A DNA stretch of 64,000 nt from the NCBI GenBank assembly GCA_012518215.1, contig JAAYSV010000008.1, positions 166,452 to 230,451 of the forward strand. The letters are read 5' to 3'. Below are positions 448-38,964 of the stretch, piece by piece. Each line of letters opens with the position of its first letter. Position 1 is the stretch's first letter. The stretch is from Bacillota bacterium. GTDB lineage: Bacteria > Bacillota > Dethiobacteria > DTU022 > PWGO01. Below the pieces are notes generated by a model. That model saw only the letters and a list, made by a program, of their open reading frames with translations. It searched no databases and was not told the DNA's origin. Made by a program: the position numbers and the translations under genes.

Positions 448-645
448 TACCTTGACGAGATAGCGCACCACCACAAAATCCGGGTAAACCTTGCGGTGAC
501 AGTTCGTCAGCTCTTTGCAGACGACCCAGCATCCGATCCACAGGGAGGATGGATACTTCGGCGGCAACCCCTTTCCTTCGGTTCATCGGGCCCCTTCTTA
601 ACCCTCCGCAGAAATACTCTTGGCAACCGCGCCTCTACCCCATCC
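448..645 (-). promoter_or_regulatory. Lysine riboswitch (L-box) in the lysA leader
   Basis: The minus-strand sequence contains the L-box hallmarks in order: GGUAGAGGCGCGGUUGCCAAGAGUA, then GAAAGGGGUUGCCGCCGAAG, then ACUGUCACC, then GGUGCGCUAUCUCGUC. Compare the B. subtilis lysC leader: AGAGGUGCGAACUUCAAGAGUA, GAAAGGGGAGCGUCGCCGAAG, GGCUGUCA, GGGCUAUCUCG. It sits directly 5' of lysA. Confidence 0.75.
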
Positions 646-835: not shown

Positions 836-1306
836 TCAGCTTTCTTCCTCATCAGCCAATGCTGTTATCACCGGCCTGTACCGAGGGTTGTCCTTGACCC
901 TTCTGTCCCAGATCCTGATGCCCCCGAAGGTCATTGCAGCCAGGCTCAGCCCCGAAACAGCCGCAATCAAAACATGATCACCCTTGAAACCTACTGCCGC
1001 CGCCAGGGAGAACCCCGCCCAGATTCCCGCAAGAAGAACGATAACGGGTACGAGATAAAAAACAAAAGAGAATAACAGCAGCTTGCCATCATCAACTTCG
1101 ATCTTGACCGTCTGTCCGGGCAGTGCATCGATGGGGTTGTCCACTTCAACATGTGAGTCCATGGTGTCCGGTCCACCCAACAACCCCCCGCATCGGCCGC
1201 ATCCTTCACAGGCCACATGGCGCCTCATCAGCACAACAGCCCTGTTTCCACGTTTTTCGATTACCTTTCCGAAACGTTCCACCCTGTCCCCCCTTCCAGC
1301 AGTCAT
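836..1306 (-). CDS. RseC/MucC-family (SoxR-reducing-system / sigma-E positive-regulator family) small membrane protein
   Basis: ORF 836..1396, trimmed to ATG 1306 because the upstream 30 codons are low-complexity translation of an A-rich spacer. It has a Cys-rich N-domain (VACEGCGRCGG) and two C-terminal TM helices (LLLFSFVFYLVPVIVLLAGIWAGF / VLIAAVSGLSLAAMTFGG), typical of PF04246. The SD is weak and the start uncertain. Confidence 0.55.
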   Translation of the reverse strand: MTAGRGDRVERFGKVIEKRGNRAVVLMRRHVACEGCGRCGGLLGGPDTMDSHVEVDNPIDALPGQTVKIEVDDGKLLLFSFVFYLVPVIVLLAGIWAGFSLAAAVGFKGDHVLIAAVSGLSLAAMTFGGIRIWDRRVKDNPRYRPVITALADEEES

Positions 1307-1474
1307 CCCTATTTTACCACACCGCCCCCCGATTATAATAAAAAGGAAAAAAGGGCCGGGTTGTTGCAAGTTTGAAAGGGCCCTTGCCCGGAACATCGTT
1401 CAGCCAGCACCGCAACAATTGGCTGACAGCAAGTTTCCCATGAAAAGAACCGACAGCATGGAGGTTAAAATGGA

Positions 1475-1515
1475 GAAGGCCTGTTCCGGTAACAGGCCTT
1501 CTCTTCTTTTTCTTT
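1475..1515. terminator. Intrinsic terminator downstream of flxA-like gene (bidirectional hairpin)
   Basis: GAAGGCCUGUU-CCGGU-AACAGGCCUUC, an 11-bp stem. It is followed on the plus strand by TCTTCTTTTTCTTT and on the minus strand by UCCAUUUUAA. It lies 30 nt after the stop of the 1533..2381 gene. Confidence 0.5.
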
Positions 1516-1532: not shown

Positions 1533-2381
1533 TCAAGCCGAAGCTTCGGGAACTCCTTTGAGCACCGCGTAACTGAATACCGGTCCATCCTTGCAAACAT
1601 AGAGGGGGCCCGCATTGCAACGGCCACATTTGCCTATGCCACACTTCATCCTGTTTTCAAGAGTCGTATAGATCTGCTCATCGGCAAAACCCAATTTTTT
1701 CAGATTCTCGATAACAAAACGAATCATGATCGGCGGACCGCAGGTGATGGCAATGGTGTTCTCCGGAGAGGGAGCCACCTCCATCAGCAAGTTGGGAACA
1801 AATCCGACATAATGAGGCCATCCTTCTTCTTCCACGTCCACCGACAGGTGGCAACAGATTCCATCCTGTTTGGCCAGGTTTTCAAACTCGGATTTGAAAC
1901 AGAGGTCGCCCGACGTTCGTGATCCGTAAATCGTGGTCAACCCCTCGTAATCACCGATATTGGCCTTCACATGCTCTACTATGGGGCGTAACGGCGCCTG
2001 GCCGATACCCCCTCCGATAGTGACAATATTTTTACCTTTCCAGTCCTCGACCGGAAAACTATTACCGTATGGTCCCCTGACCATCATCTTGTCACCCGGC
2101 TCCAATTGATGAAGTGCCCGGGTAACTTTGCCCATGCGCATCACTGAAAACCGCAGAAATTTCCCTTCCGTGGGCGAACAGGATATCGATATCATGCTCT
2201 CTCCCACACCAAGGACTCCGATCATTGCACACTGCCCCGGCCGATGTTCCCAACTATCTTTTATCTTCTCATCATCGAAGACCACTTTCAGGGTTTTTAT
2301 GCAACGATCACCGTACGTCTCGTGCCAGGCTTCCTCAACGGTAGCAATATGGGGTATATAAGGATTAGCGTTGTTTTTCAT
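1533..2381 (-). CDS. FlxA-like NAD(P)H:flavin oxidoreductase subunit (PyrK / sulfhydrogenase-gamma-like; FAD + NAD(P)-binding + C-terminal 2Fe-2S)
   Basis: ORF 1533..2609 trimmed to ATG 2381 (SD AAAGGAGGCG, spacer 5 nt). FAD motif RFSVMRM, NAD(P) motif GGGIGQAPLRP and C-terminal CGIGKCGRCN cluster motif are present. The ATG overlaps the upstream stop as ATGA. Confidence 0.8.
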   Translation of the reverse strand: MKNNANPYIPHIATVEEAWHETYGDRCIKTLKVVFDDEKIKDSWEHRPGQCAMIGVLGVGESMISISCSPTEGKFLRFSVMRMGKVTRALHQLEPGDKMMVRGPYGNSFPVEDWKGKNIVTIGGGIGQAPLRPIVEHVKANIGDYEGLTTIYGSRTSGDLCFKSEFENLAKQDGICCHLSVDVEEEGWPHYVGFVPNLLMEVAPSPENTIAITCGPPIMIRFVIENLKKLGFADEQIYTTLENRMKCGIGKCGRCNAGPLYVCKDGPVFSYAVLKGVPEASA

Positions 2382-3415
2382 AGCGCCTCCTTTACCTTTG
2401 AAAGAATGTCCAGTATATCTATATTGGCCGGGCAGTACTCTATACACCGGCCACATCCAACACAGGCTGTTTTCCCGAACTTGCTTACGTAGTAGTAATA
2501 CTTGTGATTGATCCGGTTGCGCGTTCGTTCGCGGGTCGTCGGGCGTGGATTGTGACCGGATGTATGAAGGGTATATTCTGCAAACATGCAGGAATCCCAC
2601 ATCCGGCAACGGCGGCCTTCTTCCATTTCCACTTCATCCTGGATGTCGAAGCAGTGACAGGTTGGACAGAGGAAAGTGCAAGTTCCACAGCTGATACAAG
2701 CGTTGGAAATGTCCTTCCACAATTGGTCCTCCCACAATTCCGGCAACCCCTCGGCAATGCCTTCGATTTCAATGGAGCGTCCTATCTTCTCCTCCGCCGC
2801 CCTGGTCAGAGCATCTGCAGCGCTCCTGTCTTCGGCGGTTGCATCGCTCAGCAAATCACCGTTCGAACCGAGGATTTCCTTGCCCTTTTCCGAAATTTCC
2901 CGGAGCAAATACCGATCGCCGAGGTCTACCATCAGAACATCCAGCCCCTCGGTCGAGGCCGGGCCACCCCCCACGGATGTGCAGAAACAGTTCACGCAGG
3001 GTTCGTTGCAGGCCAACCCGATCAGCAATGTCTGGTTTCTTTTATCCTGATAGTACCCATCATCGTAATCCCAGGAAAAGAGGCTGTCCACGATGGACAT
3101 GGCCCGGGCATCACATGGGCGGATTCCCAGTACCACCATTTCCTGTACCCCTTCGGGGACAGTTACTTCCTGCTGGCCCAGCTCGAAACTGAACATCGTC
3201 TCTGTTTGCGGAAAGACCACGCTTTTGGGAGGTACCGTGGTGTTGTGCCTCTTTGCTCCTTCGAAGGGAGGCGCCAATGTTGGTTGTGCTTCCCCTTCAG
3301 CATAGGGAACAAACTTCACTGCATCCTCGCTGTCAACCAGCCACACCTTCCTGGAGGAAGCCATCTTCTCCACAAATTCAGACCACTTATCTTTTTTCAA
3401 AATCTTATCAGACAT
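2378..3415 (-). CDS. FlxB-like Fe-S subunit (AsrA / sulfhydrogenase-beta-like, multiple 4Fe-4S motifs)
   Basis: ORF 2378..3421. The preferred start is ATG 3415 with SD AGGTGG 7 nt upstream. Cys motifs present: CNEPCVNCFC, CISCGTCTFLCPTCHC and CVGCGRCIEYCP. Confidence 0.7.
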   Translation of the reverse strand: MSDKILKKDKWSEFVEKMASSRKVWLVDSEDAVKFVPYAEGEAQPTLAPPFEGAKRHNTTVPPKSVVFPQTETMFSFELGQQEVTVPEGVQEMVVLGIRPCDARAMSIVDSLFSWDYDDGYYQDKRNQTLLIGLACNEPCVNCFCTSVGGGPASTEGLDVLMVDLGDRYLLREISEKGKEILGSNGDLLSDATAEDRSAADALTRAAEEKIGRSIEIEGIAEGLPELWEDQLWKDISNACISCGTCTFLCPTCHCFDIQDEVEMEEGRRCRMWDSCMFAEYTLHTSGHNPRPTTRERTRNRINHKYYYYVSKFGKTACVGCGRCIEYCPANIDILDILSKVKEAL

Positions 3416-3427
3416 ATTCACCCACCT

Positions 3428-4411
3428 CTAGAGAACAAAGTCTTCCTGATCATCAGGATGAAAACTGGCCTGAAACGGCTTTCCTTCCACATCCAACCCT
3501 GGTTCATAATCAAATTGGTTCCGCACTTCCTGAGCCAGTTTACGGTTAAGTTTACCCAGCGGCAATCCGGCGGGGCAAACTCTTTCACATTCGCCGCAAT
3601 CCACACAGCGGCCGACCAGATGAAAGGCACGGGCCAGATTGAAAATGGTGTTTTCACTGTAATTTGCCGCCCGGTTGATCCACGTCGGATTCAACCGATC
3701 AAGGACACAATCCTCGCAGTAACACATCGGACACACGTTGCGGCAAGAGTAACAGCGGATACAGCGGGAAAATTCTTTTTCCCAGTATGCCCACCGCTCT
3801 TCAAGAGACATATCTTCGATCTCTTTTACTTCCGGCGACTCCCCGTTACCGCCTGGTTGCACCTCGCTACCAAGACTGATATCGGCTATTACCGGATTTG
3901 GATGCCGGCATATCAGGCAGTTGTCCGCCAACACCTCTTCCCGTGCCACCTCTTTCTCCCCATCAGGGAATTTGAATACGATCTTGTCATCTTTCCATGC
4001 CGCCTCGACAGAATCCAGAGTTTCAGGATACTTTTCTCGTACTTTTTTTAAATCAACGACGCCCCGGCAGGGGCATCCGATTACAACCACCCGCTCCCTT
4101 TCTATCCCTTTTTCCACCAGCAATTGGACCACAGCGCGGCTGTCGCACCCTTTGACCAGCAATGCAACCTTTCGCTCATCTGGCTGCTGGCCGCGCGGGA
4201 CCGGCAACTTTTCGGCATAAGTGAGATAGCTGGCCAGGTTTGATACACACAACGGAGAAAAAATCAGTTTTTCCGTTTCTTCGGGCTTTTCAATAACACA
4301 GGGTGAAACCCGGTAACCGAAAGTCCCCTTCTGCCAGCCTAGCAAATGCTTCACATCGTCGCGTGAAACCACTTCTGCAGCGGTACTGCGAAGTTTTTCC
4401 AGATCTACCAA
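3428..4411 (-). CDS. FlxC-like Fe-S subunit (FrhB / HydB-like, two 4Fe-4S ferredoxin motifs)
   Basis: ORF 3428..4459 (TTG). I prefer TTG at 4409-4411 because a strong SD GGGGGGAGGAG ends 4 nt upstream and it lies 14 nt after the MvhD stop. Motifs present: CIRCYSCRNVCPMC and CVDCGECERVCP. Confidence 0.65.
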   Translation of the reverse strand: MVDLEKLRSTAAEVVSRDDVKHLLGWQKGTFGYRVSPCVIEKPEETEKLIFSPLCVSNLASYLTYAEKLPVPRGQQPDERKVALLVKGCDSRAVVQLLVEKGIERERVVVIGCPCRGVVDLKKVREKYPETLDSVEAAWKDDKIVFKFPDGEKEVAREEVLADNCLICRHPNPVIADISLGSEVQPGGNGESPEVKEIEDMSLEERWAYWEKEFSRCIRCYSCRNVCPMCYCEDCVLDRLNPTWINRAANYSENTIFNLARAFHLVGRCVDCGECERVCPAGLPLGKLNRKLAQEVRNQFDYEPGLDVEGKPFQASFHPDDQEDFVL

Positions 4412-4424
4412 GCGCTCCTCCCCC

Positions 4425-4856
4425 CTACCAATTGATCTTGTTACGTCGAAACTGTTCAAATGGTCCCAGTTCGCGAGTATCTTCTACAATTTTTTCCACG
4501 ACTTCCTTCCATTTGGTGGGCTCCGAAGCAGAAACCCAGCTCATCTGGAAACGACGGGGGTCGATACCCACAAACTCCATCATCTCTTTTAACAGTCCCA
4601 TCCTGCGGCGGGCATACATATTGCCCTCCATGTAGTGACAGTCACCCGGGTGGCATCCGGAAACAAGCACGCCGTCAGCCCCCTGCTGAAGCGCATTCAG
4701 GACAAAGAGCGGGTTGACCCTTCCCGAGCACATCACACGTATTACCTTGATATTGCAAGGATACTTCACCCGGCTGGTCCCAGCAAGATCAGCCCCGGCA
4801 TAGGAACACCAGTTGCACAGAAAAGCAACTATGTTTGGTTCAAAATTCTCCGTCAT
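4425..4856 (-). CDS. mvhD: MvhD / FlxD (methyl-viologen-reducing hydrogenase delta-subunit family, 2Fe-2S electron-transfer protein)
   Basis: ORF 4425..4958 trimmed to ATG 4856 (MTENFEPNIVAFLCNWCSYAGADLAG...GADGVLVSGCHPGDCHY). SD GGAG is present. The ATG overlaps the hdrA stop as ATGA. Confidence 0.85.
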   Translation of the reverse strand: MTENFEPNIVAFLCNWCSYAGADLAGTSRVKYPCNIKVIRVMCSGRVNPLFVLNALQQGADGVLVSGCHPGDCHYMEGNMYARRRMGLLKEMMEFVGIDPRRFQMSWVSASEPTKWKEVVEKIVEDTRELGPFEQFRRNKINW

Positions 4857-6850
4857 TCTCCAACCCCCAATGCAGCAATTTGCGGTAATATCTGGCAATC
4901 CATAAACGACCGCGACTGGATTGATCCAGACAGACATCCGGCCACACAGGCGCCGCATCCCTTGCAGAGTGCCTCGTTGACCCTGGCCACGTTGACCGTA
5001 CGGCCCATGCGATTGATTTCAACCAACTCGATGGCCGTGTAAGGGCATATCTCTACACAGAATGCACAACCGCGGCAGGTGCTCTCATCCACGCAGCTTA
5101 CCTGCGCTTCAACCTTCACCTTGCCGGAAGAAAGGGGAATCAGTGCCGAGGCAGCAGCCCCCTTGGCCTGGGCCACCGTGTCCGGTATGTCCTTGGGAGC
5201 CTGGCAACAGCCGGCCAGGAAAACCCCGTCCGAGGATGTATCCACCGGGCGCAGTTTGGGGTGCGCCTCCATGAGGAACCTGTCCGCGGATTGAGACAAC
5301 CTCAACAGATCGATCATCTCCCGTGTATCTTTCCGCGGCTCGAGCCCCACCGAGAGAACGACCAGATCCACCTCATCCTCGAGAGGCGTTGCTGTAAGCG
5401 TGTCCTCCACCTTGATGACCATCTTCTCCCCGCGCCGGAAGATCTCCGATGGATTCCCCCGGATGTACCTGACCCCTTCACGGCGAACCCGGTCATAGAA
5501 CTCCTCGAAACCTTTTCCGAAGGCCCGGACATCCATGTAATAAACCCTTACCCTGGCATCGGGAATCTTCTCTTTTACCAGGTGAGCCTGTTTGGCCGTG
5601 TACATGCAACATACCCTTGAACAGTACTCGTTGCCGACACTTGTATCCCGCGATCCCACACACTGGATGAAGGCAATATCCTTGGGTTCCCTGGCATCTT
5701 CACCTTCGCCGATCAGGATATTACCACCGGTCGGCCCCGAAGCCGACACCAGGCGCTCCATCTCCAACCCGGTGATCACGTTGGCATTCCCCGTGTAGGC
5801 AAACTCCGGCTTGCGGGCAGCATCGAATACATCAAATCCGGTGGCCACGATGATCGCACCGACCTTGAATTCCACAATCTCGTCCGTCTGCTCGAAATTG
5901 ATCGCTTCCGCACGGCAGACCTCCACACATTTGGGCCCCTTGCCGCATTTACCCCTGGTCAGAAACAGGCAGCGTTCGGGATCGATGGTGTAGACGGCCG
6001 GCACCGCCTGCGGAAACGGCAGATAGATTGCCGAACGTTTTCCCAGTCCCTCGTTGAACTCATCGGGAATACGATTGGCGATGCGACAGCTTGTAGCACA
6101 GTCGCCGCATCCGGTACACTTGCTGAACTCCACATAACGGGCTTTTTTTCTGACTTTAACATCAAAATTCCCCACAAAACCGCCGATTTCCTCAACTTCC
6201 GCGTAAGTCATCAGCTCGATGTTCGGGTGGCTGGCCACATCGACCATCTTGGGGGTAAGGATACAGGCCGAGCAGTCCAATGTAGGAAAGGTCTTGTCCA
6301 GCTGGGCCATGCGCCCCCCCACCGAGGGTGTCTTCTCGACAAGATAGACCTTGAAGCCCGCATCAGCAATATCCAGTGCCGCCTGGATACCGGCCACCCC
6401 TGCACCGATGACCAGCGCAGCCGGTTCGGCATCGACGAATTTTTCCTCCAGGGGTTCGAGCATCCGCGCCTTGGCCACTGCCGAGGCCACAAGTCTTTTA
6501 GCTTTCTGTGTAGCTTTCTCCCGATCGGAATGGACCCAGGAACAATGTTCCCGTATGTTGGCCATTTCCAGATAGAAAGGATTGAGGCCCGCTTCCTTGA
6601 GTGTCTTCCGGAAAGTGAGTTCGTGCATACGCGGAGAACAGGAAGCCACCACCACCCTGTTTATACCAGATTTGCTGATATCCTCGCGGATCAGCAACTG
6701 CCCGGGATCGGAGCACATGTAGGCATAATTTTTGGCGATGACGACGCCGGGAAGCGTCGCCGCAAAATTGGTTACTTCCTCAACATCGACGGTTGCTGAA
6801 ATATTTATCCCACAATGACAAACATAAACACCCAATTTTGGTTTTTCCAT
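4853..6850 (-). CDS. hdrA: Heterodisulfide reductase subunit A-like flavoprotein (FAD, N-terminal CxCGxN cluster, inserted and C-terminal 4Fe-4S ferredoxin domains)
   Basis: 665-aa protein with the following motifs: GVYVCHCGINIS; GAGVAGIQAALDIADAG; CTGCGDCATSC...CVEVC; CRGCAFCVEICP...CKGCGACVAGC. SD GGGAGGA. Confidence 0.9.
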   Translation of the reverse strand: MEKPKLGVYVCHCGINISATVDVEEVTNFAATLPGVVIAKNYAYMCSDPGQLLIREDISKSGINRVVVASCSPRMHELTFRKTLKEAGLNPFYLEMANIREHCSWVHSDREKATQKAKRLVASAVAKARMLEPLEEKFVDAEPAALVIGAGVAGIQAALDIADAGFKVYLVEKTPSVGGRMAQLDKTFPTLDCSACILTPKMVDVASHPNIELMTYAEVEEIGGFVGNFDVKVRKKARYVEFSKCTGCGDCATSCRIANRIPDEFNEGLGKRSAIYLPFPQAVPAVYTIDPERCLFLTRGKCGKGPKCVEVCRAEAINFEQTDEIVEFKVGAIIVATGFDVFDAARKPEFAYTGNANVITGLEMERLVSASGPTGGNILIGEGEDAREPKDIAFIQCVGSRDTSVGNEYCSRVCCMYTAKQAHLVKEKIPDARVRVYYMDVRAFGKGFEEFYDRVRREGVRYIRGNPSEIFRRGEKMVIKVEDTLTATPLEDEVDLVVLSVGLEPRKDTREMIDLLRLSQSADRFLMEAHPKLRPVDTSSDGVFLAGCCQAPKDIPDTVAQAKGAAASALIPLSSGKVKVEAQVSCVDESTCRGCAFCVEICPYTAIELVEINRMGRTVNVARVNEALCKGCGACVAGCLSGSIQSRSFMDCQILPQIAALGVGE

Positions 6851-6909
6851 CTCGAATTTTCATCCTCCCACGCAGATTAGCTTTTGATAGTGCTGAACCA
6901 GCTTGGGGG

Positions 6910-7887
6910 CTAAGCACCTTTCATTTCTTTGATTTTTTCGGCCAGTTTTGGAACCACCTTGAACAGATCATCAACAATGGCGTAATCCGCCTCTGCAAAA
7001 ATCGGCGCATTGGGATCCTTGTTGATAGCCACGATGGTTTTGGCTCCTTTGATTCCGGCCAGATGCTGGAAGGCACCCGAGATTCCCACTGCAATGTAGA
7101 GCTTCGGCTTCACCGTTTTACCCGATGTCCCCACCTGGCGATCATGAGGTATCCAGCCCGCGTCGGTCGCCGCACGGGAGCCGCAGATATCTGCCCCGAT
7201 GCTTTCTGCCAGCTCTTCCATCAGGGGCAAATTCTTGTCTTCACGCACACCACGGCCGATCCCTACCAGCAATTCCGACTGGGTGATATCAACGTCGCCC
7301 ACTTCAGCTTCCACATACTCGACAAACGTGCGGTAATCAAGATCCTCTTTCAAAGGGGAATCGATTTTCTCAACACTTCCCTTTTTGGAAGGCTCGATCG
7401 CTTCAAAAGCGGATTCGCGGATGGTAAACAGATAGGTCTCCGCATCCTTGAAAGAAAATTCTCCGTTTACTTTCCCCTGATAATACTGACGCTCGGCAAT
7501 CGGTTTGCCTTCTTCAATTTTCAAAGCCACCAGATCGGTAAGAAAGGGAAGCCCCTTCTCCACAGCCAGCGCGGGTGCAAAATCCACGCCCTGAGCGGTA
7601 TGCCCGACCATCACGATAAAAGGCTTGTATTCATCAATCAGGGCTGAAACGATTTTCTGGTATTTATCACCGTTGAAATCTGCCAGCAGGGCATCATCGA
7701 TACAGAGGACCCTGTCACATGCCCCGGCCAGTTCGGAAGCAAAATCATCCACACCGTGACCCAGCAGCACGGCCACAACTTCTCCCTGGGCATCTGCAGC
7801 GACCTGGGATGCCAGATTCAGCATCTCCCAGGAGATATCACGCAATGCCCCCTGCCTGTGCTCCGCCAGTACAAATACATCACCCAT
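6910..7887 (-). CDS. etfA: Electron transfer flavoprotein alpha subunit
   Basis: 325 aa with an FAD-binding C-domain ([28 protein letters not shown]). SD AAGGAGG. It follows etfB after a 1-nt gap. Confidence 0.9.
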
Positions 7888-7888
7888 C

Positions 7889-8677
7889 TTATAAATGACC
7901 TCCTTTTACGAGAATGGAAGCAAGTTTTTCCGCCTTTTCTTCCGGTTCACCCTCGATAAACTCCGCTGTCGAAACAACTTCCGGAATGTAAAGCTTGTTC
8001 AGAACGATCAACGAAGCAGACTCGTTCACCTGATCGGCAGGCATGGACAGATCGTCAAGATTCATTACCTTGAGTTCTTTTTTCTGCGCCTGTCTGATTC
8101 CCCTGATCGGGGCATAGCGGGGTTCGTTGATACCCGTCTGTATGGTCAGGACGGCCGGAAGGGCCACTTCCACAACCTCCATCAGCCCACCTTCAAGCTC
8201 CCTGCTTGCTTTTACCTTGCCATCAAGGACTTCAACATTTTTGACCATCGCCGCATGTGCCACACCCAGTTCTTCTGCCAGGGCCACCCCCACGGCCATC
8301 TGACCGTCATCGTTGGCCATGCAACCGGTGAGAACCAGGTCAAATTCTTGCCCCTTGATCGCTCCGGCAAGGACCTTGGCTATACAGATGGGGTCAAAGC
8401 TATTGATCCGGGGATCTTCTATGCGAATGGCACGATCCCCGCCCTTGGCAAGGGCCATACGGATCATGACTTCGGATTTCTGTGGCCCGATGGAAACGAC
8501 CGTGACCTCTCCTCCCTTGTCTTCCTTGATCAGCACGGATTCCTCGACCGCATAGTTGTCAGCATCGTTGATATCGAATGAAAATCGGCTGGAATCCACT
8601 GCCTTTCCGGTTTCGTCTAGTTTGATATCGGCTTCCGACGTATCCGGAACATACTTGATACAAACAAAAGTCTTCAC
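7889..8677 (-). CDS. etfB: Electron transfer flavoprotein beta subunit
   Basis: 262 aa starting MKTFVCIKYVPDTS... with a GTG start and SD GGAGGTGGAG. Confidence 0.9.
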   Translation of the reverse strand: MKTFVCIKYVPDTSEADIKLDETGKAVDSSRFSFDINDADNYAVEESVLIKEDKGGEVTVVSIGPQKSEVMIRMALAKGGDRAIRIEDPRINSFDPICIAKVLAGAIKGQEFDLVLTGCMANDDGQMAVGVALAEELGVAHAAMVKNVEVLDGKVKASRELEGGLMEVVEVALPAVLTIQTGINEPRYAPIRGIRQAQKKELKVMNLDDLSMPADQVNESASLIVLNKLYIPEVVSTAEFIEGEPEEKAEKLASILVKGGHL

Positions 8678-8709
8678 AAAACTCCACCTCCAACTTTCTA
8701 GTATTCGAT

Positions 8710-9852
8710 TTACATCACAGTGTCGATAATTTCCATTATTTCCGCTACCCTCATCTCTTCTTCAAGGCCCAATGCCTTGACAGCATCATCCAGAGTGAGT
8801 ACACAGAAAGGACAGGCTACGGCCACCACCTGTGCCCCCAGTTCTTTCGCATCCTTGATCCTTGTTTCCGCCAGGCGTTCCTCTTTCGATTCCGATTCCA
8901 CCCACATCTTCCCTCCGCCACCTTCACAGCAGAGGCTGCGTTCCCGGGAACGTTCAAATTCAACAAGTTCCACACCGGGGATGCTTTTCAGAATCATCCT
9001 CGGTTCATCAAAAATGAGGCTCTGCTTGCCCAGGAAGCATGGATCATGATAAACGATTCTCTCCTTCAACTCGCCCGAAAAACTCAATTGCTCTTTTTCA
9101 ATCAATTCGGCCAGAAGCTGTGTATAATGTATAACCTCGTGTTTCAGGCCTTCCATTTTCTTCAAAGCAGTCAGGCAATGGGGCGATAGGGTTACAATTC
9201 TTCCGGCGGAGAATTCATTGTATTTCTCCACCGTTTCCTCGGCCATCTCCCAGAAGAGTTCTTCCTCCCCCAGGGCTATGATCTCGCTGCCGCAGCAGGA
9301 TTCATCCTCGCCCAGAAAGGCATAGTCCACACCCGCTTTGTTGAGCAGCTTGACCATGTTTCTGGCTGTCGCCTGTACACGAGGATCGTAGGCAATCGTG
9401 CAGCAGACGAAAAAGAGATTTTCCACCTCCTGATCGGGATCGGCCAGTTTCACGTCCAGCCCATCCATCCAATCGTAACGGAGAGCCTTGGCCTTGTTCC
9501 AGGGGTTTCCTTCCAGGTATGTGCTTTCCAGAGCATCCCTGACAGTCGGCTGAACCTTCCCACTCTCTACCAGAAGATTGCGCAGGCCGAACAGAACCTC
9601 CACCGGTTTCAACCCCTTCGGGCATCTTACCGCGCAGGTATGACATCCGGTACAGTCCCATACTTCGACAAGGTGGGCAAGTTCATCCAGAAGGTCCTCG
9701 TTGTAAGCGTCATATACAAATCGACGTGGATTCAGATTTGTTCTGACTGTAACCGGGCAACCCCCGGTACACTTCCCGCACTGGATACAACCAAGTAAAT
9801 CAAATTTTTCTGTAAAAGAAATGTTTTCAACGCTCATCTTCATACCCCGCAT
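8710..9852 (-). CDS. HdrD/GlcF-like Fe-S oxidoreductase: N-terminal 2x[4Fe-4S] plus two CCG cysteine-rich domains (HdrC+HdrB-like fusion)
   Basis: Motifs present: CIQCGKCTGGCP and CTGCHTCAVRCP, then two CCG motifs (DESCCGSE, SLCCEGGGG) and CPFC. It is adjacent to etfBA, as in the ETF-linked Fe-S oxidoreductases of Syntrophomonas-type genomes. No obvious TM helix. The start could be M1, M4 or M6. Confidence 0.8.
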   Translation of the reverse strand: MRGMKMSVENISFTEKFDLLGCIQCGKCTGGCPVTVRTNLNPRRFVYDAYNEDLLDELAHLVEVWDCTGCHTCAVRCPKGLKPVEVLFGLRNLLVESGKVQPTVRDALESTYLEGNPWNKAKALRYDWMDGLDVKLADPDQEVENLFFVCCTIAYDPRVQATARNMVKLLNKAGVDYAFLGEDESCCGSEIIALGEEELFWEMAEETVEKYNEFSAGRIVTLSPHCLTALKKMEGLKHEVIHYTQLLAELIEKEQLSFSGELKERIVYHDPCFLGKQSLIFDEPRMILKSIPGVELVEFERSRERSLCCEGGGGKMWVESESKEERLAETRIKDAKELGAQVVAVACPFCVLTLDDAVKALGLEEEMRVAEIMEIIDTVM

Positions 9853-10078
9853 AGAGATATATTTTGTTTGCCTCTAGTAAACCGGTTTCGATATAGATTT
9901 TCTACGTTTGAAATTCCAGAAGCAAAAGACCGGACAGCCTTGATTCACCTCCTTTTCAACCCATGATTATTCCAATTATGAACGGAATATAACAAACATC
10001 GATTATGCTTGCCCTGACCCGGTTGGAAATGTTTTCCTGCCGGGATTTGACACGATTGCATAATTCATTTTCTACTCT

Positions 10079-10207
10079 TTCGACATTAATTTGAATAAAT
10101 CCTGCTAAGTATATAGAAATTAAAGAAATATAAAACAAATTAGAAGATAATGTATTTGCGCGAAATATTTTTTTCAAAAAAAGAGGATATTTCCATTTTA
10201 TGTCGAA
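10079..10207. promoter_or_regulatory. AT-rich intergenic region with two Spo0A-box-like heptamers (TTCGACA at 10079-10085, TGTCGAA at 10201-10207)
   Basis: Exact matches to the 0A-box consensus TGTCGAA in opposite orientations. They flank the promoter region shared by the spo0E-like gene and the etf-hdr operon. Confidence 0.25.
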
Positions 10208-10241
10208 ATCAACCAACCGACCCAAAAATCGGGAGGATAAA

Positions 10242-10443: not shown

Positions 10444-11487
10444 CTATTTTTCCACAACGAGCAAACTGCCTGAATAATCAAGGACTTCTCCGACTGTATA
10501 ACAGCCAAGGCCTGCTCCGGTCATGGCATCTGTCAACCCCGGCAGCCGTGCAGGTGGTACGGACATAAGAAGCCCTCCGGATGTCTGCGGGTCAGCCATG
10601 AGCATCAACTTGCTGTCATCATCTACCATTATTTCCATTCTGGGCCGGTAAAAATCCAGGTTGCGGTAGGTACCGCCGGGAACAAAACCTTTTTCGAATA
10701 GCTCCTCCGTCCGGGGGTAAAGAGGCAGTGAACCCTGCCTGAGTTTGATGGAAACACGGCTTGATTCGGCCATCTCCGCTGCATGCCCCAGCAGTCCGAA
10801 ACCGGTAACATCCGTACAGGCGGAAACCCCGGACTGCTTCATGATCCGCGCAGCTCCATCATTCAACGCGGACATCCCGTCAAGAGCCTCTGCCACCTCC
10901 TCTTCCCTGACTGCCCCCCCTTTCAGGGCAGTGGTAATGATGCCGGTCCCTATGGGCTTGCTGAGTACCAGAACTTCTCCCGGCCGGGCTCCCGAAATGG
11001 TGACGAGTTCGCGTGGGTCTACCAGGCCCGTGACAGCCAGCCCGTATTTGGGTTCATCATCCTCGATGCTATGCCCTCCAACCACGACCGCTCCGGCTTC
11101 CTGGATTTTCACATGGCCGCCATGAAGAATATCTTTCAAAATATTACTTTTCAATTTTTGGCAAGGGAAAGAAACTATATTCAAAGCAGTAAGGGGTGTT
11201 CCGCCAACCGCGTAGATATCTCCCAGGGCGTTTGCCGCCGCGATCAAACCAAACAGGTAGGGATCGTCCACCACCGGGGTAAAATAATCGACCGATTGTA
11301 CCAGGGCGGTATCCTCTGCAATTTGAAATATTCCCGCGTCGGAGTTTTTTTCCTCACGGTTCAAGAAACGCCGATCCTCCGGCAGGGGCAATTGACGCAG
11401 AACCTGCGCCAGGGTCTCCGGACCTATCTTGGCTGCTCACCCGGCGCTACGTGCCAACGAGGTCAACCTCATTTTTTTCTCCGACAT
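10444..11487 (-). CDS. selD: Selenide,water dikinase (selenophosphate synthetase), selenocysteine-containing: in-frame TGA (Sec) at 11437-11439, codon 17
   Basis: ORF track gives 10444..11391 only. Reading upstream in frame gives MSEKKMRLTSLARSAG-U-AAKIGPETLAQVLRQLPLPEDRRFLN..., which aligns with E. coli SelD [23 protein letters not shown]; the UGA replaces Cys17. SD AAGGGGTG lies before ATG 11485-11487. The rest (SVDYFTPVVDDPYLFGLIAAANALGDIYAVGG...) is canonical SelD. Confidence 0.85.
11380..11436 (-). promoter_or_regulatory. Candidate SECIS region immediately 3' of the selD UGA
   Basis: mRNA: UGA GCAGCCAAGAUAGGUCCGGAGACCCUGGCGCAGGUUCUGC. A GGUC-CGGA-GACC hairpin starts 14 nt after UGA with outer GCAG...CUGC complementarity. 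The structure was not folded computationally. Confidence 0.3.
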
Positions 11488-11501
11488 CTGCCCACCCCTT
11501 T

Positions 11502-13415
11502 TCAAAGTTTCCAGGGTACACGATAATCCCCCACCCTTTTCGTGTACTTCTTCTGGTCAAAATGTTCCAGCAATGCTTGCATGTATTTCCGCGAACTCTG
11601 CAGGCAGTCACGAAATTGAGCCATCGTAAGCCGATCATGTTGGCGAAAATGATCCCGCAACATCTCCAGTGCCTCTTCATACAGATCCTGGAGCAGATAC
11701 ATATCTTCACTTATTTTGATTATCCAACCGCGATCGCTCATGTATTCCAGCAGAGATTCGAGGTCAGCAATCTTCCGGTCAGTGGAAGCCGCTATTTCTC
11801 TTGCCGGAGGAGGCTGGAACCGTGCTTCGCTCAGAATCGACTTGATCTTGCTGATGAAAATCTCCTCGCCGGGTGTCAGTTCAGGTACAAAACCGGCTCT
11901 GCAAACCTTCTCTCCCTGACAGCTCACCACCCCTTTGGCCTCCAGATTGTCCAGGAAAGCATCGTATTCCCTGATGGAGAGTTCTGCCGGAATTACGCCC
12001 CTCAACTGCGCCCGCGGAACCCCGGCCAGAAGAGGATGCTTGCGATGATAGTCATCCAGAAAAGCAGTTACCTCCTCTTCCCATTTTTCCAGCGTTTCCG
12101 CCGTTATATAACTGCCCCCCAGATCCATGATCTTTCCCTCATCCTTCAGTTCCCCGATAAGTGATTCCAGCTTCTCCTTTCCCAACCGGGCCATCGTTTC
12201 AAGCCGTGAAAAATCGGCCACTTTCAACTGGCTTATCTTCTGGACCACGTATGATCTGTCCGTTCCGGAAGTCAGAATCTCTCTCTCCAGTTCCCGGAGG
12301 GTTTTTATGATTGTGCGGCGGGCGCGGCGCGGCCTCCTTTCCGAGAAAGGGTCGAGGACCATCCCCCCACCAATCGTCACCACCGGCGAATAGGAGCGGA
12401 TGATGAAACGGTCCTTCCTGTCGGCGACCAGCGGCGACTCCAACCTGAGCTGGACAAGCCCCCTTTCCCCGGGCCGCAGGATCTCTTTATCCAGAATAGC
12501 CATACGCGCCACCACCCGGGACGTGCCAAGATAAAGATGCAGGGGGTCCAGGTTCTTCACGTCCCTGGTAACTCTATTCAATATCGTCACGGAGGCATCG
12601 AGCATCGATGTCCGCCTGAAATAACCCGGGGAACAGATCACGCTTCCCCGTTCCAGTTCACTCTTTTCCACCCCCGAAAGATTTATGGCCACCCTGTGTC
12701 CGGCAAAAGCTTCCTTGACACCGTGATTGAAAACCTCGATGTTGCGCACGCGCGCTTTCTCCCCCGCGGGCAACACTTCCACGATATCACCGATGCCCAC
12801 GCGCCCCTGGATGAGCGTGCCCGTCACTATCGTGCCAAACCCGGATATGATGAAGGAACGGTCAACGGGAAGCCGCATCGGTGCATTCAGGTCGCGGGGT
12901 GCGACCATCCTTGTAAGCCGATCAAGCATCGCCCGCAATTCCTCTATCCCGGATCCGGTTACCGCCGAAACCCGGCAGAAAGGGGCTTCCTGCAGGAAAG
13001 TACCCCGAAGTTCTCCTCGCACCTCTTCCTCCACCATGTCCAACCATTCTTCATCGACAAGGTCGATTTTGGTCAGCACGACCAGTCCTTTTTCCAGTCC
13101 CAGCAATTGCAGAATGTTGAGGTGTTCGCGGGTCTGGGCCATAACTCCCTCGGAGGCATCGATCACCAGCAGTACAAGATCTATGCCCGCGGTACCCGCC
13201 AGCATATTGTTGATAAATCTTTCGTGGCCCGGAACATCTATTATTCCCGCTACCCGGCCTCCGGACAAAGAAAAAGAAGCAAAACCCAGATCGATGGAGA
13301 TGCCCCTTTCCTTTTCTTCCTTGAGCCGATCCGTGTCCACCCCGGTAATCGCACTGATCAGCGCCGTCTTGCCATGGTCAACATGGCCGGCCGTACCGAT
13401 TATCACCGCATCCAA
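11502..13415 (-). CDS. selB: Selenocysteine-specific translation elongation factor SelB
   Basis: MDAVIIGTAGHVDHGKTALI... with GTPase G1-G4 motifs and a long winged-helix C-terminus. TTG start with SD GGAGTG 7 nt upstream. It lies 14 nt upstream of selD. Confidence 0.9.
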   Translation of the reverse strand: MDAVIIGTAGHVDHGKTALISAITGVDTDRLKEEKERGISIDLGFASFSLSGGRVAGIIDVPGHERFINNMLAGTAGIDLVLLVIDASEGVMAQTREHLNILQLLGLEKGLVVLTKIDLVDEEWLDMVEEEVRGELRGTFLQEAPFCRVSAVTGSGIEELRAMLDRLTRMVAPRDLNAPMRLPVDRSFIISGFGTIVTGTLIQGRVGIGDIVEVLPAGEKARVRNIEVFNHGVKEAFAGHRVAINLSGVEKSELERGSVICSPGYFRRTSMLDASVTILNRVTRDVKNLDPLHLYLGTSRVVARMAILDKEILRPGERGLVQLRLESPLVADRKDRFIIRSYSPVVTIGGGMVLDPFSERRPRRARRTIIKTLRELEREILTSGTDRSYVVQKISQLKVADFSRLETMARLGKEKLESLIGELKDEGKIMDLGGSYITAETLEKWEEEVTAFLDDYHRKHPLLAGVPRAQLRGVIPAELSIREYDAFLDNLEAKGVVSCQGEKVCRAGFVPELTPGEEIFISKIKSILSEARFQPPPAREIAASTDRKIADLESLLEYMSDRGWIIKISEDMYLLQDLYEEALEMLRDHFRQHDRLTMAQFRDCLQSSRKYMQALLEHFDQKKYTKRVGDYRVPWKL

Positions 13416-13452
13416 TTCTTATCACTCCGCACCATAGAGATTGTTTTTTGAT

Positions 13453-14871
13453 CTATTCCCCGGGATTTACCGCCTTCATCATCACGGTAACAATTTCTTC
13501 CTCCTGTCCGGGCAAAACGGTCCGCAAATCCAGAAGCAAATGTTCCTGGTGGACCCTCGCTATCAGGGGGGGGTCTCCCCACCGCAATCTTTTCATCAAC
13601 TCCTCCGCCGAAATGTCCCCGGATCGGTAGGAGATCAGATACGTGGGCAATTCTGCCAGGGGCATGGCTCCACCCCCCACACAGGAGGTCCCTTTCATTA
13701 TCTGCCAATCCCCTGCCTTGACCTGCTGTTTCAAACGGCGCAGCAAACGGTCAGCCCTCGCCTTCAGGTCACGGGTATCAGCGGTCAACATCCCCAGAAC
13801 GGGAATTTCACATCGGGCCTTCTCGTGGTCATGATAGAGGCGTAAAGTCGCCTCCATGGCCGCGATGGTTAGTTTATCAACGCGCAATGCCCTTGACAGC
13901 TGGTTATCACGCAACCGCCGGATCAGGTCCCTGTCCCCTACAATTATCCCTGCCTGCGGTCCGCCAAGGATCTTGTCCCCGCTGAATGAGACTGCCCCGA
14001 CACCCTCTTCGAGGCATTCTTGCACGGTGGGTTCCGGAGGCAACCCGTATTCGGTGAGATCATAAAAAGCCCCACTGCCCAGATCTTCCACCACCGGCAA
14101 GCCAACCTGCCGACCCAGGGAAACCAGTTCTTTCCGGGAAACCTCCTCCGTAAAACCAATGATACGATAATTGCTTGTATGTACCTTCAGGAGCAATGCA
14201 GTCCGATCAGAAATGGCTCTTTCATAATCATGCCGGTAACATTTGTTCGTAGTTCCCACTTCCACCAGCGTTGCCCCGCTGGCTTTCATGACATCGGGAA
14301 CACGGAACCCTCCCCCTATCTCGACCAGTTGCCCGCGGGAAACGATAACTTCCCTATCCCTGGCCAAAGTATTGAGAAGAAGCAATACCGCCGCGGCATT
14401 GTTGTTGACAATCAGGGAAGCTTCCGCCCCGGTCAAGGTGCATACCAGCCCCTCCACGTGGGCCAGCCGTGAATCCCTCCGGCCACTTTCCAGCGAAAGT
14501 TCAAGATTGGAATACTGCCCCGCCGTGGATGTAACTGCGTGGATAGCCTGTTCGGCCAGCGGCGCCCGCCCCAGATTGGTATGCAATATAACCCCTGTTG
14601 CATTGATCACATGGCGCAGCCCGGAAAAAAACCGCAGCCTTGCCCTTTCCGCGGCTTCGGCAGCAATCACGGCGGGGTCGATGGCCAGGTTTTCAAGTTC
14701 CTCGCCGGAGGAAGAAGCGATGATTTTCTCTCTGAAATGATCTATGCTCTCGCGTGAAACTTCGAGCAGGAGACCGTGGGGAATCCGATTCGCGATTTTT
14801 TGCAGGGGCTCTTCCTGCAAGATACGGTCCACCGCCGGCAAGGCCCTGAGAAAAGAGTTTTTAACGTCCAT
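13453..14871 (-). CDS. selA: L-seryl-tRNA(Sec) selenium transferase
   Basis: ORF 13453..14901 trimmed to ATG 14871 (SD AGAGGTG, spacer 5). The sequence MDVKNSFLRALPAVDRILQEEPL... is a typical SelA N-terminus. Confidence 0.9.
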   Translation of the reverse strand: MDVKNSFLRALPAVDRILQEEPLQKIANRIPHGLLLEVSRESIDHFREKIIASSSGEELENLAIDPAVIAAEAAERARLRFFSGLRHVINATGVILHTNLGRAPLAEQAIHAVTSTAGQYSNLELSLESGRRDSRLAHVEGLVCTLTGAEASLIVNNNAAAVLLLLNTLARDREVIVSRGQLVEIGGGFRVPDVMKASGATLVEVGTTNKCYRHDYERAISDRTALLLKVHTSNYRIIGFTEEVSRKELVSLGRQVGLPVVEDLGSGAFYDLTEYGLPPEPTVQECLEEGVGAVSFSGDKILGGPQAGIIVGDRDLIRRLRDNQLSRALRVDKLTIAAMEATLRLYHDHEKARCEIPVLGMLTADTRDLKARADRLLRRLKQQVKAGDWQIMKGTSCVGGGAMPLAELPTYLISYRSGDISAEELMKRLRWGDPPLIARVHQEHLLLDLRTVLPGQEEEIVTVMMKAVNPGE

Positions 14872-14905
14872 CCCGACACCTCTGACATATGATTTGATCA
14901 TTTAC

Positions 14906-16563: not shown

Positions 16564-18348
16564 CTACTTCTCCAAAAAGTATTTCTTCGCCTTGTAAGCC
16601 TCATCTGCCAATTCGCGCTTGATAACATAGGTGTTGAGCGGAATATTACGGCTCAGCAGGAGGATGTTATCCGTATTTCTTGCTGCTTTTTCCGGTTCAA
16701 AAGTACCGGCAATGACCTCGTTGGTCCATGCCTGGCATTTCGGAACCATTTCGCTCACCAGGCACTGGGTCATCAACATCGGCAGGCGGGCAGCTTCCTC
16801 ACCACTTTCAGCGGCAATCTTCCTCGCCCTCAGCAAGGAGCTTTCAGCGGCGAAAACTTCCATGGCAATATTGGCCAGGGCCACCAGAATCTCCTGTTCC
16901 TGCTCGATGGCCTGTTCAAACTGACGTGCTGCATTGCCGCAAGCCAGCAGGAATAGTTTCTTCATGTTTTCAATGACGAAGGCTTCCTTCTCCGGTGACT
17001 CCGTGGGTACCTCCATCTCTTTCAGCTTGTCAAGTTCCCCTTTCAATCCGAAGACAGCGTCCATGAAAGGAAGGTCGCCGCTCATCGCCTTGGGAAGAAG
17101 GGTTCCGGGGATAAGCATGCGGTTGACCTCGTTGGTGCCTTCAAAAATCCGGTTGATACGGCTATCCCGGTACAACCTTTCCACGATATATTCGGCCGAA
17201 TAACCGTAACCACCGTAGATCTGCACTGCCTCATCGACGATCTGATCCAGCCCTTCCGAGCAGTAAACCTTGTTGATCGAACATTCAATGGCGTATTCAC
17301 GAATCGAATTGACAACCTGCTGGTTGGCATCCTCGGCATCCATGTCCACATCTTCCATCTTGGTGTCGATCAGTCCCACGGTGCGATAGACCATACTTTC
17401 CATGGCATAGGTCTTGATCAACATGTCGGCAATCTTGTTCTTGATCAGGTTGAACTGCGCGATGGGCTGGTTGAACTGATGCCTCTCCAGTGCATATTCG
17501 ATCGAAGCTTCAATTGCTTTCTTGGCCCCGCCGACTGCACCGGCAGCCAGCTTGAAGCGGCCGATATTCAAGATATTCAGCGCCACCTGATGTCCCTTGC
17601 CGATCACATGAAGAACGTTTTCCACGGGAACCTTGCAGTCTTCCATGATCACGCTGCAGGTCGAAGATCCATGGATCCCCATCTTCTTCTCCTCGGGACT
17701 GATGGAAAGCCCTTCCGAATCACGATCAACGATAAAAGCGGTGAACTTCTCTCCGTCAATCTTGGCGAATACAATGATCACGTCCGCCCAGGCAGCATTG
17801 GTAATAAACATCTTGGTCCCGTTAAGTATGTAATGCTTGCCGTCTTCAGTCAGAACAGCCGTGGACCTTGCGTTCATGGCATCGGAACCGGCTTCCGGTT
17901 CAGTCAGTGCATATGCCGCAATTTTGTTTCCCACTGCCAGATCGGGAAGATAGCGTTCCTTCTGCTCCTTGGTACCGAAATAGACGATCGGCAGGGTACC
18001 GATACCCGTATGAGCACCGAATGCCGTGGAGAAGGAACCTGAATAGGTCAGGGCTTCGGCAATGAGCGCCGAAGTAGTCTTGTCCCCACCGTCTCCGCCA
18101 TATTCTTCGGGAATATCGCTGCCAAGAAGCCCCAGTTCCCCCGCTTCTTTCAACAGGCCTACCGTCACCCCTTCGGCTTTGGCTTCGATCTCATCAGTGA
18201 GGGGAAATACTTTGTTCTCACCAAAATCATCACACGTCTTCTTGATCATAAGATGCATGTCATCCAGTTCTTCGGGGGTAAAAACATCATCTGGACCAAG
18301 CTGGCTGAGCAAGAAAGACCCACCTTTTACATAATCCTGTTCACTCAT
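16564..18348 (-). CDS. Acyl-CoA dehydrogenase, long (~594 aa) form with C-terminal extension
   Basis: ORF 16564..18387 trimmed to ATG 18348 (SD AAGGAGGAG, spacer 9; MSEQDYVKGG...). ACAD N/M/C domains are present (YALTEPEAGSDA, catalytic region IYGGYGYSAEYIVERLYRDSRINRIFEGTNEVNR) plus an extra ~200-aa C-terminal domain. Confidence 0.9.
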   Translation of the reverse strand: MSEQDYVKGGSFLLSQLGPDDVFTPEELDDMHLMIKKTCDDFGENKVFPLTDEIEAKAEGVTVGLLKEAGELGLLGSDIPEEYGGDGGDKTTSALIAEALTYSGSFSTAFGAHTGIGTLPIVYFGTKEQKERYLPDLAVGNKIAAYALTEPEAGSDAMNARSTAVLTEDGKHYILNGTKMFITNAAWADVIIVFAKIDGEKFTAFIVDRDSEGLSISPEEKKMGIHGSSTCSVIMEDCKVPVENVLHVIGKGHQVALNILNIGRFKLAAGAVGGAKKAIEASIEYALERHQFNQPIAQFNLIKNKIADMLIKTYAMESMVYRTVGLIDTKMEDVDMDAEDANQQVVNSIREYAIECSINKVYCSEGLDQIVDEAVQIYGGYGYSAEYIVERLYRDSRINRIFEGTNEVNRMLIPGTLLPKAMSGDLPFMDAVFGLKGELDKLKEMEVPTESPEKEAFVIENMKKLFLLACGNAARQFEQAIEQEQEILVALANIAMEVFAAESSLLRARKIAAESGEEAARLPMLMTQCLVSEMVPKCQAWTNEVIAGTFEPEKAARNTDNILLLSRNIPLNTYVIKRELADEAYKAKKYFLEK

Positions 18349-18414
18349 ACAACAATTCTCCTCCTTGATTTTTTTTAAATAAAACATTTTTGGTTGAAAC
18401 CAATAACTATACTT

Positions 18415-38855: not shown

Positions 38856-38859
38856 GGAT

Positions 38860-38935: not shown

Positions 38936-38964
38936 GGCCATATCAACATTATTGTACAAATAGG

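Follow-up and report, generated by a model that had tools for sequence, protein, structure and literature searches.

Within a 64,000-nucleotide stretch of contig JAAYSV010000008.1 from a Bacillota bacterium (assembly GCA_012518215.1, positions 166,452 to 230,451 of the forward strand; GTDB lineage Bacillota, Dethiobacteria, DTU022, PWGO01), hereafter the window, we analyzed eight consecutive minus-strand genes. They encode an HdrD-like iron-sulfur protein, the two subunits of an electron transfer flavoprotein (ETF; EtfB and EtfA), a full-length HdrA, the adaptor MvhD (FlxD), and FlxC-, FlxB- and FlxA-like proteins. The operon probably encodes a soluble and reversible NADH:ferredoxin/ETF oxidoreductase, and on present evidence it appears to be a new variant of the Flx-Hdr and HdrA-type bifurcating enzymes that is unnamed in databases. 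A soluble, ETF-coupled HdrA/Flx complex had been proposed in the first-pass annotation of this DNA, and the prediction was strengthened by gene-order conservation across phyla, variant architectures, acyl-CoA genes adjacent to the system in other lineages, and the lack of any membrane segment.

Gene neighborhoods were compared across genomes by scanning one genome per GTDB species with an EtfA alignment and mapping the eight window proteins onto the 80 best loci with tblastn. The window's own species lay outside these 80 loci, and the best EtfA match had 77% identity. The full colinear order hdrD'-etfB-etfA-hdrA-mvhD-flxC-flxB-flxA was present in 36 of the 80 loci, comprising 27 Dethiobacteria-type metagenome-assembled genomes (MAGs), many of them labeled Syntrophomonadaceae, from sources including digesters and soda lakes, and nine Actinomycetota (Geothermincola, Solincola, Anoxymicrobiaceae and relatives). 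A further 19 loci with EtfA identities of at least 57% were consistent with this order, 18 as sub-chains at contig ends and one (L054) with all eight genes represented by fragmented hits, and no contradicting gene order occurred among the loci at or above this identity. This common architecture, present in at least 55 species, has no name. The pairwise-distance matrices of the eight proteins correlated with r = 0.81–0.96, likewise within Dethiobacteria alone, and mean between-phylum identity ranged from 52% (FlxC) to 74% (HdrA). The block appears to have been inherited as a unit and to have been exchanged once, again as a unit, between phyla. Chance adjacency of the eight genes was ruled out by the conservation of gene order across the two phyla.

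The synteny in Dethiobacteria is wider, reading selA-selB-(selD)-operon-rseC, which favors vertical inheritance there and is the reason for not counting rseC in the system. This last gene, located directly 3' of flxA (836–1396, minus strand), encodes a small membrane protein of the RseC/MucC family with a Cys-rich N-terminus. It is kept in 25 Dethiobacteria loci and absent in the Actinomycetota loci, and probably represents chromosomal synteny outside the system.

The locus also occurs in identical form on approximately 40–50 public metagenome contigs from biogas reactors, one of them 2.70 Mb long. The operon proteins have consecutive accessions (NLI69634–NLI69641) with generic database names only, the FlxA-like protein being named "heterodisulfide reductase subunit F" at NCBI. 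These names agree with the earlier view that the gene order is not a characterized system, as does the literature: no description of this order was found in searchable full text, in which two leads, PMC10553843 with its preprint (a single "Etf-Hdr" string) and PMC2702500 (Desulfobacterium autotrophicum, etfBA with hdrA, mvhD and hdrD), were left unchecked.

HdrA is the proposed site of flavin-based bifurcation. It aligned with the crystallized HdrA of Methanothermococcus (5odc_A) over residues 1–659, with 826 bits and 58.8% identity, and has an N-terminal domain, a TrxR-like flavin adenine dinucleotide (FAD) domain, and inserted and C-terminal ferredoxin domains. The two proteins share 28 Cys residues, both ferredoxin-like domains included, and K420 aligns with K409, the N5-contacting Lys of 5odc_A. 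According to an April 2026 preprint (bioRxiv 10.64898/2026.04.10.717634), an N5-contacting Lys is characteristic of Hdr-type bifurcating flavins. FlxA, FlxB, FlxC and FlxD (MvhD) were assigned by their Pfam domains. The operon shows the order of an hdr gene followed by flxDCBA that is known in Clostridia. No separate hdrB or hdrC gene was present within 10 kb of the operon in loci L001–L003; a fused 380-aa protein is found instead.

Three segments distinguish bifurcating EtfBs and were validated by mutagenesis in a study of Ldh-EtfAB, namely DGDTAQVGP at the bifurcating FAD (b-FAD), RXFXG at the NAD+ site, and SPT (PMC9232219). In an alignment with five reference EtfBs, two of them bifurcating and three non-bifurcating, EtfB of the window reads DDGQMAVGV (NDDGQMAVGV with the preceding Asn) at the b-FAD site, PRINSF at the NAD+ site and SAS at the SPT site, and all three sites are variable and unconserved across approximately 70 clade members. 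EtfB scored 171 bits against the ETF of W3A1 (best PDB match, 1o94_C), which we take to be a non-bifurcating ETF, versus 80–107 bits against bifurcating EtfBs. EtfA was likewise closest to the W3A1 ETF among solved structures, and no N-terminal ferredoxin domain was found on it. The ETF is predicted to be a plain one-FAD carrier of the non-bifurcating type, and with the b-FAD, NADH and SPT motifs missing, the bifurcating flavin should therefore be that of HdrA. It is very improbable that a bifurcating (group 2) ETF oxidizes NADH here and that HdrA and Flx merely extend its chain: the N-terminal EtfB stretch VC[IV]K.VPDT resembles bifurcating EtfBs and EtfA gives fairly good scores against CarE and the EtfA of C. 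difficile, but the defining EtfB motifs are absent, the bit scores favor the W3A1 ETF, and NAD(P)H has a binding subunit of its own in FlxA. The first-pass annotation had counted a non-bifurcating ETF with a membrane-bound quinone-reducing partner elsewhere against its proposal. The ETF type alone does not refute that proposal, since it puts bifurcation at the FAD of HdrA and gives ETF the part of high-potential partner, which it also plays in class II benzoyl-CoA reductase (BCRII).

The HdrD-like protein contains two [4Fe-4S] motifs and two CCG domains and is the sole CCG protein encoded in the operon. No transmembrane segment was detected in any of the eight operon proteins; the maximum Kyte-Doolittle(19) value of the HdrD-like protein, 1.62, is located on its CPFC cluster motif, and the protein has no membrane domain. 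With transmembrane segments in 0/8 proteins, a membrane-bound ETF:quinone oxidoreductase was ruled out. Among proteins of solved structure, mycobacterial EtfD is the closest (9ojn_A, E = 2e-49, residues 64–377), whereas HdrB matched at only E = 5e-5 and HdrC aligned with the N-terminal dicluster only. The earlier description of this protein as an HdrCB-type fusion fits its domain content, a Fer4 dicluster fused to two CCG domains, but not its affinity, which is nearer to the ETF-oxidizing EtfD/EMO group than to methanogen HdrB. EtfD oxidizes ETF and reduces menaquinone, and its cluster D2 is the proposed ETF-facing entry (PMC13083937). The five Cys ligands of D2 (equivalents of C637, C672, C673, C709 and C712) are invariant across 61 homologs taken from the compared loci. 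The first CCG site reads VCC...CCG...SPHC (residues 150–226), keeping the Hdr-type CC pair (C186/C187), while the first Cys of its CXXC is replaced by Ser in 58 of the 61 homologs; the second site (residues 308–310) has CCE in place of CCG, also in 58 of the 61. The Ser in the first site may parallel a Cys-to-Ser change in the distal cluster of BamD, the HdrD-like subunit of BCRII, a likeness drawn by description with the positions unaligned.

An exhaustive search of 1.84 billion cluster representatives yielded 1,492 relatives of the HdrD-like protein at E ≤ 1e-30. Among the best 150 of these (50%-cluster representatives), 103 were longer than 600 aa, with the homologous part C-terminal, and 92 of the 103 had at least two hydrophobic segments (EtfD/EMO-like), most of the proteins above 600 aa having three to five. 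Another 20 were 421–600 aa long, and the two that were scanned were TfrB-like with an N-terminal [2Fe-2S] domain; the remaining 27 were soluble proteins of approximately 380 aa. By homology, the HdrD-like protein is placed as a member without a membrane domain of a superfamily dominated by EtfD/EMO-type enzymes.

Distant EtfA relatives (50–55% identity) were found in uncultured Gemmatimonadota, Zixibacteria, Dehalococcoidia, unclassified bacteria, Bathyarchaeia and Ca. Alkanophaga, and these lineages keep ETF, the HdrD-like protein, HdrA and MvhD in subsets or other orders. Seven loci have etfBA-hdrA-mvhD without flx genes (L060, L061, L064, L066, L070, L072 and L073). Where the contig extends past mvhD, four of these (L061, L066, L072 and L073) carry cobO and meaB, genes for both the large and small subunits of a B12 acyl-CoA mutase, an HMG-CoA-synthase-like gene and a gene for an acyl-CoA dehydrogenase. 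HdrA is split in L075 (1506–7958), a locus of an unclassified bacterial MAG, its N-terminal half being fused to a NuoE-like [2Fe-2S] domain and its C-terminal half to a NuoG-N-terminal-like Fe-S domain followed by mvhD, with a NuoF-like FMN/NADH protein between the halves; this input module appears to be of the BamGHI/HydBC type, replacing Flx. Permuted gene orders occur in L078 (Bathyarchaeota) and L083. Five loci (L059, L063, L067, L076 and L079; hosts Bathyarchaeia, Ca. Alkanophaga and uncultured bacteria) have hdrD'-etfBA triplets that adjoin between one and four genes for acyl-CoA dehydrogenases and lack hdrA in their surroundings, and the CCG protein there is soluble. The eight-gene block has cobO and acyl-CoA mutase genes at its flanks in Geothermincola and Solincola, with crotonase and acyl-CoA dehydrogenase genes in addition in Geothermincola, where the mutase, crotonase and dehydrogenase genes lie at L040:2634–5224 and 16707–18706. 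The mutase, crotonase and acyl-CoA dehydrogenase neighbors suggest a role in butyrate/isobutyrate-type metabolism. The retention of the core through rearrangements, the interchangeable input modules and the acyl-CoA neighbors are the strongest evidence for an acyl-CoA-linked functional unit.

From these parts, we infer a physical complex, its electron path and its substrates; its direction in vivo could be either. The complex would be a soluble, cytoplasmic flavo-iron-sulfur enzyme centered on the bifurcating FAD of HdrA. Electrons of NAD(P)H would enter at FlxA (FAD and [2Fe-2S]) and pass reversibly through FlxB, FlxC and MvhD/FlxD to the HdrA flavin. The low-potential branch would lead through the ferredoxin-like domains of HdrA to free ferredoxin, and the high-potential branch through the soluble HdrD/EtfD-like CCG protein, replacing HdrBC, to the single FAD of the non-bifurcating ETF, which would carry electrons to and from acyl-CoA dehydrogenases. 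The net reversible reaction would be 2 NADH + 2 Fd(ox) + ETF(ox) <-> 2 NAD+ + 2 Fd(red) + ETF(red), where Fd is ferredoxin. Together with an acyl-CoA dehydrogenase, the enzyme would act as an enoyl-CoA-dependent NADH:ferredoxin oxidoreductase, performing the chemistry of Bcd-EtfAB with HdrA as the bifurcating center; in reverse, it would allow ferredoxin-driven re-oxidation of ETF to form NADH in beta-oxidation, with no quinone or membrane needed. With standard potentials of −320 mV for NAD, about −450 mV for ferredoxin and about 0 mV for ETF, we estimate that the NADH-oxidizing direction is exergonic by approximately 35–40 kJ per 4 electrons.

A precedent for the proposed high-potential branch is BCRII of Geobacter metallireducens, in which HdrA-type BamE bifurcates and the high-potential electron passes through HdrD-like BamD to a non-bifurcating ETF (bioRxiv 10.64898/2026.04.10.717634). 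BamD has altered non-cubane clusters and no heterodisulfide pocket, and ETF was seen docked in cells by cryo-electron tomography and was reduced in vitro (same April 2026 preprint). The window system shares with BamE-BamF-BamD and ETF an HdrA-type flavin, an MvhD-like adaptor, an HdrD-like subunit and a non-bifurcating ETF. By contrast, it has no tungsten BamB/BamC module in the operon or its flanks, its low-potential acceptor is presumably free ferredoxin, FlxABC stands in for BamGHI (the distant L075 uses a NuoEFG-like module), it has a canonical HdrA in place of a fused double one, and its ETF genes lie inside the operon.

FlxABCD-HdrABC of Desulfovibrio vulgaris has been described as an NADH dehydrogenase/heterodisulfide reductase (Ramos et al. 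2015, as cited in PMC6687939). Like this enzyme, the window system has a FlxA-type subunit with NAD(P)H, FAD and [2Fe-2S] sites, FlxB and FlxC, an MvhD-type FlxD and a full-length HdrA; unlike it, one fused EtfD-like CCG protein takes the place of HdrB and HdrC, etfB and etfA lie between this gene and hdrA, and ETF, in place of DsrC or a disulfide, is proposed as the high-potential partner. The hdr locus I of Desulfotomaculum reducens (Dred_0137–0148), compared by description, is similarly a Flx-Hdr-like Firmicute locus, reportedly with HdrD for HdrB/HdrC, but no etf genes were reported there (PMC4759654). The predicted chemistry, reversible and linking NADH, ferredoxin and acyl-CoA/enoyl-CoA (or a similar couple) via ETF, resembles that of Bcd-EtfAB, CarCDE and Ldh-EtfAB; in those enzymes, a second FAD in EtfB acts as the bifurcating flavin, whereas the ETF here lacks the corresponding motifs. 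With EtfD/EMO (DUF224) of mycobacteria, Syntrophus and Syntrophomonas, the system shares a homologous Fe-S/CCG module, the D2 ligands and the adjacency to etfBA. Unlike EtfD/EMO, it has no membrane or heme domain and no quinone site, so that electrons would go to or from HdrA, and unlike EtfD its first CCG site keeps the CC pair and has SPHC for CPHC.

Several observations weigh against an ETF-coupled NADH:ferredoxin enzyme. The CCG superfamily also has TfrB-like, LUD/lactate-type and other soluble members at a similar distance, and homology alone leaves the ETF substrate unfixed because thiol- and lactate-linked members share this superfamily; the assignment of ETF as the partner of the HdrD-like protein draws on gene context no less than on homology. 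Disulfide chemistry may be possible given the CC pair kept in the first CCG site. A conventional Flx-Hdr enzyme would bifurcate electrons of NADH at HdrA to ferredoxin and to a disulfide carrier (DsrC-like or low-molecular-weight) at the HdrD-like CCG clusters, with ETF as an extra donor or acceptor on the same Fe-S chain. The Flx and HdrA parts match this layout, and the best-scoring NCBIfam model for the HdrD-like protein is that of thiol:fumarate reductase TfrB, which uses thiols (154 bits, below the cutoff). We nevertheless consider this explanation unlikely: none of 55 loci has a candidate disulfide-carrier gene, dsrC-like genes included, within or adjacent to the operon, the CXXC of the first CCG site has largely lost its first Cys, the closest solved relative is EtfD, etfBA lies inside the operon and co-varies with it, and the HdrD-like subunit of BCRII reduces ETF and binds no heterodisulfide.

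The hdrA-free loci L059, L063 and L079 add a second difficulty, as the HdrD-like protein and EtfBA evidently work with other partners there. The window genes could accordingly encode two co-transcribed enzymes that form no complex, one consisting of ETF and a soluble ETF-oxidizing Fe-S protein with another partner, and the other an independent HdrA-MvhD-FlxABC oxidoreductase of the NADH:ferredoxin type. The etf-free HdrD-MvhD-HdrA-Flx locus reported from D. reducens (PMC4759654) is in keeping with such a division. It is nonetheless slightly less probable still than the conventional enzyme, since HdrA-type enzymes need an HdrBC- or HdrD-like high-potential branch and only the etf-adjacent protein encodes one, a soluble ETF oxidase without an onward acceptor would make no sense alone, and five genes are kept together across at least four arrangements.

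For the proposed NADH:ferredoxin/ETF oxidoreductase, the acyl-CoA link within Dethiobacteria is a further weak point. The window does contain a long VLCAD-type acyl-CoA dehydrogenase gene and a thiolase gene, 5–8 kb upstream of the operon, which the first-pass annotation had taken as this link. Within Dethiobacteria, neither this thiolase nor any acyl-CoA dehydrogenase is conserved beside the operon, and the acyl-CoA dehydrogenase of the window lies 6.7 kb from it, beyond selD-selB-selA; the link comes instead from the other lineages described above. The confurcating direction would also be uphill by roughly 35–40 kJ per 4 electrons by our estimate, and would need reduced ferredoxin supplied independently as well as an NAD pool that is very oxidized. 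We suggest only tentatively that the operon family could be a widespread route of quinone- and membrane-independent ETF re-oxidation, in which HdrA would confurcate the electrons of ETF and reduced ferredoxin into NADH through Flx or other input modules.

In anaerobic fatty-acid degradation, acyl-CoA oxidation (about −10 mV) poses the greatest redox difficulty, and its known solutions are bifurcating ETF complexes of the Bcd-EtfAB type and membrane-bound ETF:quinone oxidoreductases with reverse electron transport. If the proposal holds, an HdrA-centered soluble complex with an ordinary ETF would be a third solution, found as a single compact operon among abundant lineages of biogas, soda-lake and subsurface settings and as modular variants elsewhere. 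It would provide strictly anaerobic degraders of fatty and branched-chain acids in several bacterial phyla and some archaea with a soluble alternative to EtfD/EMO. ETF would then be a general, rather than BCR-specific, high-potential partner of HdrA-type bifurcation, and the recent finding that ETF takes up the high-potential electron from an HdrA-type flavin would be broadened from one specialized 1-MDa enzyme to a wide family. Papers on syntrophs list "Flox-Hdr" as an uncharacterized complex and treat ETF re-oxidation separately; the proposal would give a function to the "Flx-Hdr" clusters that metagenomic studies list as uncharacterized syntroph-associated complexes. With eight genes and all-soluble products, the operon is a target suited to heterologous expression and structural work.

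The features of the operon are summarized in Table 1. The open reading frame listing together with Pfam and NCBIfam searches bore out the eight co-directional genes between 9852 and 1533 and the identities first given to them.

Table 1 Features of the hdrD'-etfBA-hdrA-mvhD-flxCBA operon and its ends in the window.
Feature	Position	Strand	Domains and remarks
HdrD-like/EtfD-like Fe-S protein	8710..9852	-	Pfam: Fer4 dicluster + two CCG; 380 aa
EtfB, ETF small subunit	7889..8677	-	Pfam ETF; 262 aa
EtfA, ETF large subunit, electron-transfer FAD	6910..7887	-	Pfam ETF + ETF_alpha; 325 aa
HdrA, full length	4853..6850	-	NCBIfam HdrA2 model, 883 bits; 665 aa
MvhD/FlxD [2Fe-2S] adaptor	4425..4856	-	Pfam FlpD, 185 bits; 143 aa
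FlxC-like Fe-S protein	3428..4411	-	FrhB_FdhB_C + Fer4 (4Fe-4S dicluster); TTG start, strong ribosome-binding site
FlxB-like Fe-S protein	2378..3421	-	Fer4_22; sulfhydrogenase beta/AsrA-like
FlxA-like NAD(P)H/FAD subunit, [2Fe-2S] domain	1533..2381	-	NAD_binding_1 + DHODB_Fe-S_bind; sulfhydrogenase gamma/AsrB-like
AT-rich intergenic region, likely promoter	9853..10241		34% GC; common to divergent spo0E-like gene
Palindromic hairpin with 14-bp stem, likely (possibly bidirectional) terminator	1472..1504		marks operon end

The genes are tightly packed. Two junctions are 4-nt ATGA overlaps (hdrA/mvhD, with the mvhD ATG on the hdrA stop, and flxB/flxA), and the spacers measure 1 nt between etfB and etfA, 32 nt between the Fe-S protein gene and etfB, and 59 nt between etfA and hdrA, all in agreement with the first description. 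The mvhD-flxC spacer is 13 nt; the 14 nt given earlier is correct as start minus stop. A GGAGG-type ribosome-binding site lies closely 5' of seven of the eight starts, whereas the first gene has a sole GAGG approximately 20 nt 5' of the ATG at 9852. Gene callers place the start of this gene at 9843 (377 aa), which is probably correct, and for flxB the ATG at 3415 (345 aa) is more likely than the GTG at 3421. No in-frame TGA was seen across the eight genes, and an Rfam scan of the window found no RNA element within the operon.

At the 3' end, the hairpin begins 28 nt beyond the flxA stop and has the better T-tract on the plus strand; on the minus strand, ATTTTA comes after it. The 389-nt intergenic region 5' of the operon has a GC content of 34%, compared with 52% in the operon, and contains sigma-70-like −35/−10 hexamers at 9995–9966 on the minus strand. 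The first-pass annotation had derived a single operon from such a terminator and promoter region. Both are present, but promoter and terminator scans gave counts no higher than expected from shuffled sequences and serve as description only; because of this, the single-operon call rests on the tight junctions, from which the eight genes are predicted to form one operon.

Elsewhere in the window, selD, selB and selA (10444–14901, minus strand) lie immediately upstream of the operon, and a tRNA-Sec gene (22119–22210, minus strand) is located 12 kb from it. Genes for an HpaB-family protein and two class-III aminotransferases are present at 22398–23843 (plus), 34960–36417 (plus) and 36590–37975 (minus). 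The HpaB family includes 4-hydroxybutyryl-CoA dehydratase, and the HpaB-family gene may encode this enzyme. Together with the aminotransferases, it may hint at conversion of 4-aminobutyrate/4-hydroxybutyrate to crotonyl-CoA; these genes would fit crotonyl-CoA reduction equally well, and the window accommodates either direction.

A second MvhD-containing redox protein of the window is a 696-aa fusion (42620–44710, minus strand) of a GltD/NfnB-like NAD(P)H flavoprotein (Fer4_20 and Pyr_redox_2), a ferredoxin domain and a C-terminal MvhD/FlpD domain; an FMN reductase gene (44819–45430, minus strand) adjoins it, with no hdr gene beside it. A four-tRNA cluster (38784–39119, minus strand) lies downstream of a sigA-dnaG pair. 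Finally, a lysine riboswitch (453–645, minus strand; 102 bits) is located upstream of genes for diaminopimelate decarboxylase and diaminopimelate epimerase, which are seen on the extended contig (L001).

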